A stretch of 64,000 nucleotides of DNA. Origin: Candidatus Micrarchaeota archaeon (GTDB lineage Archaea; Micrarchaeota; Micrarchaeia; Anstonellales; Bilamarchaeaceae). The stretch lies in contig JBBSVO010000003.1 in NCBI GenBank assembly GCA_038046805.1, forward strand, positions 19,878 through 83,877, read 5' to 3'. A program made the position numbers and the translations under genes. Positions within the stretch are counted from its first letter, which is position 1; each line of letters starts with the position of its first letter. Under the pieces are notes generated by a model. That model did no database searches, was not told where the DNA came from, and saw only the letters and a program-made list of their open reading frames with translations. Shown in pieces: positions 17,436-44,466 of the stretch.

Positions 17436-17945
17436 CTACGCCTTCTTGCCCTCTTTCGCAATCTCAACGATGTTTGAACTTCCCTGCTCATAAACAGAAA
17501 GCACGGAAACAGGATATGGTTTTCCGCACACCGAACCTAGCTCTATTGAAGTTCCGGCAAAGTTTATGATTGGGACTCCTTTTGAAGAAGAGAGGTAGTT
17601 AATTCCTGACTTTACACGTGTAGGAGAATTTCCAGCAAGAACAAAAGCAAGACTGGTTGCACCCTTTTTCATTGCCTCATTAGAACCAAAACCTACTTTT
17701 CCGCTTTCAACAGCAAGCCTTATCGCACGTGAAACCGGACTTTCCTTTTCGCGTTTTGACTTTCTTCGCCTTACAAGTTTTTTCTTTGGTTCATCAACGG
17801 CTGTTTCATCTGCTGCTTCCGTGGACTCCGCGACGTTTTCCGCAACCTCTGCTGATTCCACTTCCTCGCTTGCATCTTGTGCCGCTTTCTTTGTAGTCTC
17901 CTCAGAAATATCTTCAGTTTCGTTTTCTTTTTTCTTTGCAACCAT
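17436..17945 (-). CDS. rpl30e: Ribosomal protein eL30 with an acidic N-terminal extension
   Basis: SGKVGFG and GTSIELGSVCGKPYPVSVL motifs. Confidence 0.92.
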   Translation of the reverse strand: MVAKKKENETEDISEETTKKAAQDASEEVESAEVAENVAESTEAADETAVDEPKKKLVRRRKSKREKESPVSRAIRLAVESGKVGFGSNEAMKKGATSLAFVLAGNSPTRVKSGINYLSSSKGVPIINFAGTSIELGSVCGKPYPVSVLSVYEQGSSNIVEIAKEGKKA

Positions 17946-43417: not shown

Positions 43418-44113
43418 ATGAAAGCATTTATCTTGTGCGGCGGGGAAGGGACTCGGTTAAGGCCATATACCTATACTACTCCAAAACCCTTGTTGCCGGT
43501 TGGAGGAAAGCCAATACTGCAACATCTTGTTGAGCATTTGAAGAAATATGAGATAAAGGAATTTGTATTAACTGTTGGATATCTAAAGGAAAAAATAATG
43601 GAATATTTCGGGGATGGAAAAAAATTCAGTCTTAAAATAGAATATGCTACCGAAGATACACCGAAAAATACTGCTGGATCGATTCGTGATTATCACGGAA
43701 AGGTAAAGGAAACGTTCGCGGTTTTGATGGGGGACCATATAACAGATATAAACATGGCAGATATGCTAAAATCCCATAAGAAAAGCAAGGCTATCGCAAC
43801 TGTCGCACTTTTGAAAAAGGAAACAAAAATTGAATACGGAGTTGCAGAAATTGACAAAAAAACCGGAAGAATAACTGGATTTTCTGAGAAACCTGTTATA
43901 GAGCACGATATCAATACCGGAATATATCTTTTTGAGCCAGAAATTTTTGATTTTATCGAGGACAAGGACGATTTTGCGAAACAGGTTTTTCCAAGGCTTC
44001 TGAAAGCAGGAAAGCCGATAAATGCTTATGTGGCTGAATTTGAATGGCTGGATATTGGAAGGGTAGCTGATTATGAGAGAGTAAAACAAGAATGGAAGAT
44101 AGGGGACGATTAG
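43418..44113 (+). CDS. Sugar-phosphate nucleotidyltransferase
   Basis: ILCGGEGTRLRPYT..PKPLLPVGG and WLDIG motifs. Confidence 0.92.
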   Translation: MKAFILCGGEGTRLRPYTYTTPKPLLPVGGKPILQHLVEHLKKYEIKEFVLTVGYLKEKIMEYFGDGKKFSLKIEYATEDTPKNTAGSIRDYHGKVKETFAVLMGDHITDINMADMLKSHKKSKAIATVALLKKETKIEYGVAEIDKKTGRITGFSEKPVIEHDINTGIYLFEPEIFDFIEDKDDFAKQVFPRLLKAGKPINAYVAEFEWLDIGRVADYERVKQEWKIGDD

Positions 44114-44191
44114 CTTCTGGGTACTGGCTCCTAGCTAGCTTCTGACTGGTAGCTCTCCAGATTATAAAATATTCCCAACAATCATTTAATC

Positions 44192-44279
44192 CTACGATGA
44201 TGACATAGGTGATCACCGAGCCTATCCCTAAGCTTCGGCCACGGAGAACGCGATGAGGATTGACGTGCGGTCTGAGTAG
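44192..44279 (+). ncRNA. Box C/D guide sRNA
   Basis: Box C ATGATGA 44197-203, D' CCGA 44216-19, C' ATGAGGA 44253-59, D CTGA 44272-75; both guides 12 nt; terminal stem CTAC/GTAG; TTATAAAA at 44162. Confidence 0.8.
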
Positions 44280-44292
44280 TTCTATTGTCTTA

Positions 44293-44416
44293 GGTCTAGA
44301 GTCCGATAAAAATGTCAAACATTTTTATGGACCACACAATTGTTGCTCAGAGCAACAATGTGCACATTGTCCTGCTGGACAATTGTGTTGAACGATGCGT
44401 CGTTCAATCGGTCTAG
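44293..44416. other. Four-hairpin palindromic element flanked by GGTCTAG direct repeats
   Basis: Stems at 44301-32, 44335-62, 44363-87 and 44388-407; ggtctag at 44293 and 44410. Confidence 0.65.
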
Positions 44417-44466
44417 TGTCTCGCCTGAAAGGATATCCTCAAAAGGTTTTTCATAGAAAGATTAGT

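Follow-up and report, generated by a model that had tools for sequence, protein, structure and literature searches.

Cm1402 is among the very few rRNA ribose methylations common to bacteria, archaea, and eukaryotes. The bacterial 2'-O-methylation of C1402 is performed by the protein RsmI, a stand-alone enzyme that makes the same product without a guide RNA, and the eukaryotic guides are snR70 in yeast (Cm1639) and SNORD43 in human (Cm1703). A linker of about 3-9 nt between box D' and box C', which forms a K-loop, is typical of archaeal C/D sRNAs without being a defining trait. Pyrococcus abyssi has Cm1376 at the position equivalent to C1402, and Table 4 of PMC7005279 gives it together with m4Cm1402 of E. 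coli, Cm1639 of yeast, and Cm1703 of human; the initial annotation of the DNA studied here had named the bacterial and the yeast modification, and both stand in that table. In Nanoarchaeum equitans, the one DPANN archaeon for which this site has been measured, Cm1402 was found by RiboMeth-seq, and an obvious sRNA candidate for it was not apparent (PMC5389701). Predictions for helix 44 were sparse in the survey of seven archaea by Dennis et al., and none was named at C1402 (PMC4644070).

Three described guide-RNA systems can be compared with the locus reported here. IHOsR11 of Ignicoccus hospitalis (Dennis et al. 2015, PMC4644070; Seistrup et al. 2017, PMC5389701) carries a D' guide that was proposed for Cm1402 (PMC5389701), and its sequence is given in the supplement of PMC4644070. 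This guide reads CCGAUGGGCGGA, with CUGA directly after it; its complement is the 16S stretch 1398-1409, and it places N+5 on C1402. It has G opposite C1403, without a mismatch, and a G:U wobble at 1405. Neq sR13 of the DPANN archaeon N. equitans is a double guide for 1405-1415 (Am1408) and for the anti-Shine-Dalgarno (anti-SD) region at 1531-1540 (Am1534) (PMC5389701; sequence in the supplement of PMC4644070), and was proposed to stand in, as RNA, for the KsgA checkpoint that this organism lacks (PMC5389701). In eukaryotes, box C/D snoRNAs are likewise the guides for this site. The equivalents of C1402 there are Cm1639 in yeast and Cm1703 in human (PMC7005279, Table 4).

The locus described here is, judged by its sequence, a real small guide-RNA gene of the dual-guide box C/D class in a Micrarchaeota host, a member of a group of tiny symbiotic archaea, and the encoded sRNA most likely directs the ribose methylation of 16S C1402. 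The gene was read at 44191-44281 of the forward strand of the window, which is the whole stretch of 64 kb that was analysed (contig C3:19878-83877 of a 1.2-Mb MAG assembly that is 86% complete), and its product is predicted to be an independent transcript of about 90 nt. The TATA box, the C, D', C', and D boxes, the two 12-nt guides, and the terminal stem that the initial annotation had placed within 44162-44279 were all found there, with the following arrangement:

44162-44169, forward strand: TATA box TTATAAAA, about 25 nt 5' of the predicted RNA start, a direct reading
44192-44195, forward strand: CUAC, 5' half of the terminal stem, pairing with GUAG at 44276-44279 in the canonical stem of the C/D kink-turn
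44197-44203, forward strand: box C, AUGAUGA, with the core UGAUGA invariant or nearly so in the orthologs
44204-44215, forward strand: D' guide CAUAGGUGAUCA, 12 nt, with the conserved core GGUGAUC complementary to 16S GAUCACC
44216-44219, forward strand: box D', CCGA, which is CUGA in many relatives and CAGA or CUAA in others
44220-44252, forward strand: structured D'-C' linker, 33 nt, with the arms GCCUAUCC and GGAGAACGC, an internal loop CUAA/CAC, and a GC/GC pair
44234-44237, forward strand: UUCG loop of the linker, capping the GC/GC pair
44253-44259, forward strand: box C', AUGAGGA, a perfect AUGAUGA in several relatives
44260-44271, forward strand: D guide UUGACGUGCGGU, 12 nt, complementary to 16S 1398-1409 and near-invariant in the orthologs
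44267, within the D guide: the G at N+5, pairing with C1402; the neighboring U44266 faces C1403 as a mismatch
44272-44275, forward strand: box D, CUGA, invariant in the orthologs
44276-44279, forward strand: GUAG, 3' half of the terminal stem, pairing with CUAC

These parts are those of an archaeal dual-guide box C/D sRNA: box C and box D with a terminal stem, internal D' and C' boxes, and two spacers of exactly 12 nt. The point absent from the initial annotation is the distance between D' and C', which is 33 nt instead of the usual few nucleotides. The gene is flanked by an NTP-transferase gene and a glycoside-hydrolase-like gene, which lie 280 nt apart. An antisense open reading frame of 121 aa (43953-44318) was without a Pfam match and was taken as spurious. 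When the 1.2-Mb genome was scanned for box C, box C', a 12-nt spacer, box D, and a terminal stem, two to three candidates including this locus were obtained, and the reversed genome gave none. Together with the conservation in dozens of genomes with covarying stems, this result places the arrangement above chance. The Rfam search of the 64-kb window gave nothing at the gathering score, and for the locus and its orthologs only weak generic CD-box matches were obtained, below the thresholds of the curated C/D families.

The 3' side of the gene showed some features of its own. Within 44280-44420, short GUCU-N-AG-like repeats (GTCTTAGGTCTAGAGTCC) lie directly downstream of the sRNA and were also seen downstream in genomes G001, G020, G012, G005, and G008. 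They are followed by a hairpin cluster at 44293-44416. A conserved 3' flank, UUUUCAUUAGCCUGA, is common to several genera and may be a terminator or a recombination site.

The sRNA was recognisable in most relatives, and alignments of 20 and 25 loci were made. Boxes C and D, the core of C', D' in the form C[C/U/A]GA, the D' core GGUGAUC, and almost the entire D guide were invariant in them, and an A/T-rich TATA-like box stood at a fixed distance 5' of box C in most orthologs. Among 401 sampled genomes of the phylum, the pattern GA[C/U]GUGCGG-N-CUGA was found in roughly 60 of the 76 genomes of the host family, and loci with the same pattern occurred in several other families of the order as well as in family f36, which lies outside the order and inside the class. 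A motif with 19 specified bases, covering the C' box, the D guide, and the D box, was then searched across 185,579 prokaryotic species, each represented by one genome. It matched 77 stretches, where chance would give about 4. According to the record titles, 66 of these were from Micrarchaeota-lineage MAGs (titles with Micrarchaeota, Micrarchaeia, Micrarchaeales, Anstonellales, Bilamarchaeaceae, and similar names), 8 from other or unclassified archaeal MAGs, and 3 from bacterial MAGs. Apart from Micrarchaeota and a small number of MAGs from other DPANN or unclassified archaea, the sRNA is essentially absent.

The stems varied in a compensatory way. All four pairs of the terminal stem were changed on both sides among 23 orthologs, for example CUAC/GUAG, UGUG/CACA, and AUAU/AUAU. 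For the terminal and D'-C' stems of these orthologs, 86.5% of the cells were paired, compared with 70% after shuffling, a level reached by none of 500 shuffles, and the covariation score was 0.47 against 0.20 for the shuffled data and far lower when the partners were slid; such shuffle-based statistics are inflated by the kinship among the genomes.

To examine the D guide, the 16S rRNA of the host itself was used. The gene is split across two contig ends whose overlap allowed joining, and reads GCACACACCGCCCGUCAAG; a repeated TCCGCACGTCCA at contig ends was considered and is not part of rRNA operons. The D guide UUGACGUGCGGU pairs at 11 of 12 positions with host 16S ACCGCCCGUCAA (E. coli 1398-1409), as the initial annotation had proposed, and N+5 falls on C1402. 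The N+5 pair, G44267:C1402, is Watson-Crick, and the sole non-pair is U44266 opposite C1403. The stretch 1398-1409 was the best site for this guide in the host 16S and 23S rRNAs, and 11 pairs were reached by 7 of 300 composition-matched shuffles. The guide has the complementarity to rRNA of at least 9 bp with a Watson-Crick pair at N+5. In addition, the published prediction rule allows one mismatch away from the target nucleotide (PMC4644070), and the pairing of the D guide with 16S lies within this rule.

Two accounts of the mismatch had been offered, a C1403A change in the 16S of this organism or a tolerated mispair. The former was rejected, since the host 16S carries C1403, and the mismatch is therefore real. 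Moreover, of the 28 relatives with a 16S match, 27 have the 16-mer ACACACCGCCCGUCAA around C1403 unchanged, and the other has one mismatch that was not placed. The latter account stands, for the mispair is conserved as well. Guide position 6 is U in every true ortholog except in family f10, whose complete sRNAs have A, and it is never G. Three matches to the pattern GACGGGCGG-N-CUGA, which would be perfect complements with G at position 6, were inspected and dismissed as they were without C/D boxes, and the G variants of the guide pattern were no commoner than the chance A and C variants. The remaining variation of the D guide was at positions 1, 11, and 12, with a C to U change opposite G1405 that keeps a wobble pair, which is as a constraint on pairing predicts.

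The predicted duplex energy of the D guide with 16S was -15.7 kcal/mol with the mismatch, compared with -22.9 kcal/mol if it were perfect. The values predicted for other guides of the host were -13.0 kcal/mol (D' guide) and -15.1 kcal/mol (another guide of the genome). The most likely reason for the mismatch may be that it tunes a G+C-rich duplex to the stability of the other guide duplexes, easing release. Such tuning would be served by any base other than G and so does not account for the fixation of U within the family. The mismatch also adjoins the target nucleotide, and mispairs there could impair methylation.

IHOsR11 has its guide for the same stretch at D', whereas that of the Micrarchaeota sRNA is at D. 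It also has a different partner guide and is compact, without a structured linker. Since IHOsR11 has G opposite C1403, the mismatch is particular to the Micrarchaeota sRNA family. The likeness of the two guides is forced by their common target and does not show common descent.

The D' guide was compared with the 3' end of the host 16S, ...AUAGAUCACCUCC, with which it forms 8 contiguous pairs. Only its positions 2-8 (GGUGAUC) are conserved (families f1, f6, f7, f10, and f36), with free variation at positions 1 and 9-12. The rRNAs of the host contain GAUCACC at a single place, the 16S 3' end (E. coli 1530-1536), and the 16S 3' end AACCUGCGGAUAGAUCACCUCC was identical in 14 of 14 aligned genomes. 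The N+5 nucleotide of this guide is C1533, in what we take to be the E. coli numbering of the 16S 3' tail. The pairing amounts to 8 bp in the host and to 7-9 bp in relatives, where at least 9 bp are expected of such guides. A lone 7-mer match in 6 kb of rRNA is not significant, and neither is the 8-mer match by which CUAAGCCA resembles 16S position 44, which was discarded.

The initial annotation had regarded the anti-SD match as its weaker proposal, and this reading gained strength from the invariance of the seven complementary bases GGUGAUC across families and from the precedent of Neq sR13 (PMC5389701). In both RNAs, one guide is for the decoding strand at the start of h44 and the other for the anti-SD end of 16S, and the motifs UUGAC and AGGUGAU are common to them; the Micrarchaeota targets are shifted (1398-1409 and 1530-1537) and the box assignment is swapped. 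Furthermore, I. hospitalis has Cm1533 (PMC5389701). The anti-SD end is thus the likely partner of the D' guide, because the conserved and the complementary parts of the guide coincide, the site is in the same domain about 120 nt away, and there are published parallels. In family f9, the sRNA with this D guide is compact (55 nt) and carries another D' guide, whose best match in 16S is 7 bp at 1493-1499, on the opposite strand of the decoding-site helix. This match weakly hints that the f9 guide may be directed to the decoding-site domain too.

The linker between D' and C' is 33 nt in the host and up to about 95 nt in relatives, in place of the short K-loop. Within it, CUAAGC and GCCAC were invariant in 23 orthologs, and the flanking arms covary. 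The arms differ between genera and stay complementary, and cognate pairing exceeded non-cognate pairing in 5000 of 5000 permutations. Many genera have, instead of the cap, an insertion of 45-53 nt with two hairpins, giving a three-way junction, and in a few orthologs there is a further insertion in the 3' arm. In some genera, and sometimes within one genus, the linker is a short stem-loop only. With this D'-C' stem present, the C'/D' motif is a genuine kink-turn and not the usual archaeal K-loop. From these patterns, the linker stem appears to behave like an expansion segment with a conserved module. Its internal loop was also considered as a second kink-turn, which was rejected because tandem G.A pairs are impossible, and no match of the linker domain to an Rfam family was found. 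Eukaryotic snoRNAs, too, commonly carry internal stem-loops between D' and C', which is a likeness in layout; the eukaryotic RNAs have degenerate C'/D' motifs and different proteins (Snu13, Nop56/Nop58).

The proteins of the C/D RNP that were expected along with such a guide, fibrillarin, Nop5, and L7Ae, are all encoded in the host genome. The fibrillarin was 96% identical to its homologue in a Candidatus Micrarchaeota MAG, and the main L7Ae gene was found at C4:2520-2792. A second match to the L7Ae family (PF01248, E 6.8e-10), in an open frame of 182 aa, lies at 17466-17732 on the reverse strand of the window (C3:37343-37609), and it is probably a ribosomal protein paralog such as L30e. No ortholog of RsmI (TIGR00096) was found in the host and 12 relatives, and the bacterial controls were above the cut-off; RsmI was therefore rejected as the C1402 methylator in these 13 genomes. 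KsgA/Dim1 is present in the host as a full-length match to PF00398 (RrnaAD) with E 2e-48. PF00398 was likewise full-length and high-scoring in 11 of the 12 relatives, and G006 gave a weak partial match (E 5e-10). N. equitans is without KsgA/Dim1, whereas the Micrarchaeota host has KsgA, and a role of the sRNA as a replacement for this enzyme was rejected on that ground.

Taken as a whole, we think it probable that a dual-guide C/D sRNP methylates C1402 via the D guide and that the pairing of D' with the anti-SD end is a second anchor or a methylation site. The RNA would be transcribed independently, and L7Ae, Nop5, and fibrillarin would assemble on the C/D and C'/D' kink-turns. The D guide would pair with the 5' strand of the 16S decoding site and place fibrillarin on C1402, giving Cm1402. 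The base opposite C1403 would be kept unpaired by selection, and the lower stability of the duplex would let the RNP release. The D' guide GGUGAUC, which is Shine-Dalgarno-like, would pair with the anti-SD end about 120 nt downstream in 16S, and this pairing would either help to hold the RNP on the 3' minor domain or methylate C1533.

The conserved mismatch beside the target, which appears to be selected, could also be read differently. The RNP may bind 1398-1409 and the anti-SD end and leave C1402 unmethylated, as the mispair at N+6 disables catalysis, and it would then act only as a chaperone or timer of folding in the 3' minor domain (base of h44 and 3' tail), a role of the kind proposed for Neq sR13. 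Both guides bind parts of one domain that contact mRNA, the f9 D' guide has 7 bp with 1493-1499 on the opposite strand of the helix, and chaperone or checkpoint roles have been proposed for such double guides (PMC5389701, PMC4644070). However, the features that methylation needs are in place, with a Watson-Crick G:C pair at N+5, spacers of exactly 12 nt, and intact boxes, and a single mismatch that spares the target nucleotide is compatible with the published rule (PMC4644070). Moreover, a replacement checkpoint is unneeded since KsgA/Dim1 is present, and Cm1402 occurs in other archaea, so that we regard a purely chaperoning role as unlikely, albeit worth keeping in mind. The invariance of U at position 6 within the family, as if this base were paired, also raises the question of whether the true target of the D guide is another RNA (ACCGCACGUCAA or ACCGCGCGUCAA) that pairs with it, the 16S site being a near miss. 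But a second exact site is absent genome-wide, sites with one mismatch numbered 3 where about 5 are expected by chance, and the sites with a fully paired core were all in or antisense to coding sequence or without an Rfam match. The seven intergenic candidate sites matched no Rfam family except for a weak tRNA-like match on the wrong strand. In addition, the A at position 6 in f10 would not pair with the same partner, and a guide that is invariant across the class needs an extremely conserved target, such as 16S 1398-1409. A target other than 16S is thus very unlikely.

The last alternative is that the locus is non-functional as RNA, being made of chance motifs or being a conserved DNA site such as an integration (att) site. 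Partial copies of its 3' end were found in the genome of the host and 1.3-5 kb downstream in several relatives, which suggests an integration site. Yet the compensatory changes in two stems, the boxes at fixed spacing, the upstream TATA box, and the retention throughout the class argue for a structured RNA gene, which makes this explanation extremely improbable. Since the ends of conserved RNA genes are characteristic targets of integrating elements, the partial copies fit an RNA gene as well.

The partial copies consist of the end of the D guide, box D, and the 3' stem. The copy in the host is at C2:57328-57345, one in locus L012 of genome G008 is at 2946-2975, and doubled matches 1.3-5 kb apart were seen in G012, G203, G153, G302, G250, and G292. 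In G008, the 1.4 kb between the copies encode a protein of 328 aa with a Fic motif (HPFADGNGR). These copies look like the result of mobile DNA integrating into, and duplicating, the 3' end of the sRNA, as at tRNA genes. Another repeated sequence, the 8-mer CCGCACGT, has 70 copies in the host genome, about 2-3.5 times above expectation, often as U-rich-CCGCACGUU; its coding strand AACGUGCGGA reads Thr-Cys-Gly. It was rejected as a target of the D guide because its flanks are unrelated and the copies are mostly antisense to long ORFs.

Methylation of C1402 by the sRNP may not be its whole function. As a quite doubtful extension of the methylation reading, somewhat less credible than the chaperoning role above, the RNP might act as a transient "message mimic", which clamps the P-site strand of pre-16S at C1402 together with the anti-SD tail until late 30S assembly. 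The non-pair at C1403 would then set the rate of release, and the CUAA/CAC domain, expandable to a three-way junction, would recruit an extra assembly factor. If this were true, the RNA would be an archaeal counterpart of the eukaryotic multi-domain processing snoRNAs.

The sRNA seems, from the sequences compared, to represent a new, phylum-wide family of box C/D guide RNAs, themselves a well-known kind. For its target site and its two-site layout, there are published precedents in IHOsR11 and Neq sR13, respectively, and the new features appear to be the conserved mispair beside the target and the structured, expandable linker. The family is a well-supported candidate for the C1402 guide of a whole DPANN phylum whose small RNAs are undescribed. 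The mismatch, never repaired, is a natural experiment on the pairing rules of the C/D RNP, and the linker indicates that archaeal guide RNAs can gain extra domains, like eukaryotic snoRNAs.

Two further compact C/D sRNAs were noted in the host genome, the second of them as a candidate:

C6:90917-90973, forward strand: AUGAUGA-CGUGAACAACCU-CCUA-GGCGCAAGCC-GGUGACGA-UGCUAACAGCGU-CUGA, with the terminal stem UUGC/GCAA
C4:102773-102819, reverse strand: candidate, GUGAUGA-CUCAGUUAUU-CUGA-UUA-AUGAUGA-AGAUCUUGAGUU-CUGA

The D' guide of the sRNA on C6 pairs with 23S GGGUUGUUC (GGGUUGUUCAUC; 9 Watson-Crick and 2 G:U pairs), and its N+5 is the equivalent of E. coli U2552, the universally methylated uridine of the A-loop. 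A good rRNA match was not found for its D guide. For the candidate on C4, the best 16S match has a mismatch at N+5. The two clearest guides of the host, for C1402 and U2552, thus aim at ribose methylations common to all domains, which suggests that genome-reduced archaea keep the RNA-guided machinery for universal sites. The scan for sRNAs was crude, and the repertoire of the host may therefore be larger.

Genes for other stable RNAs of the host were also unusual. ARAGORN gave 2 tRNA genes without introns and 10 when introns were allowed, and the Rfam tRNA model gave 8 matches, 4 of them above the cut-off; the scarce tRNA genes are either heavily interrupted or atypical, or missing from the bin. 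The joined 16S gene (C4/C9) is about 1770 nt long and carries insertions, and the match to the 23S gene at C2:119808-124180 spans 4373 nt, compared with 2987 positions of the model. These insertions in the rRNA genes are likely to be introns or expansion segments.
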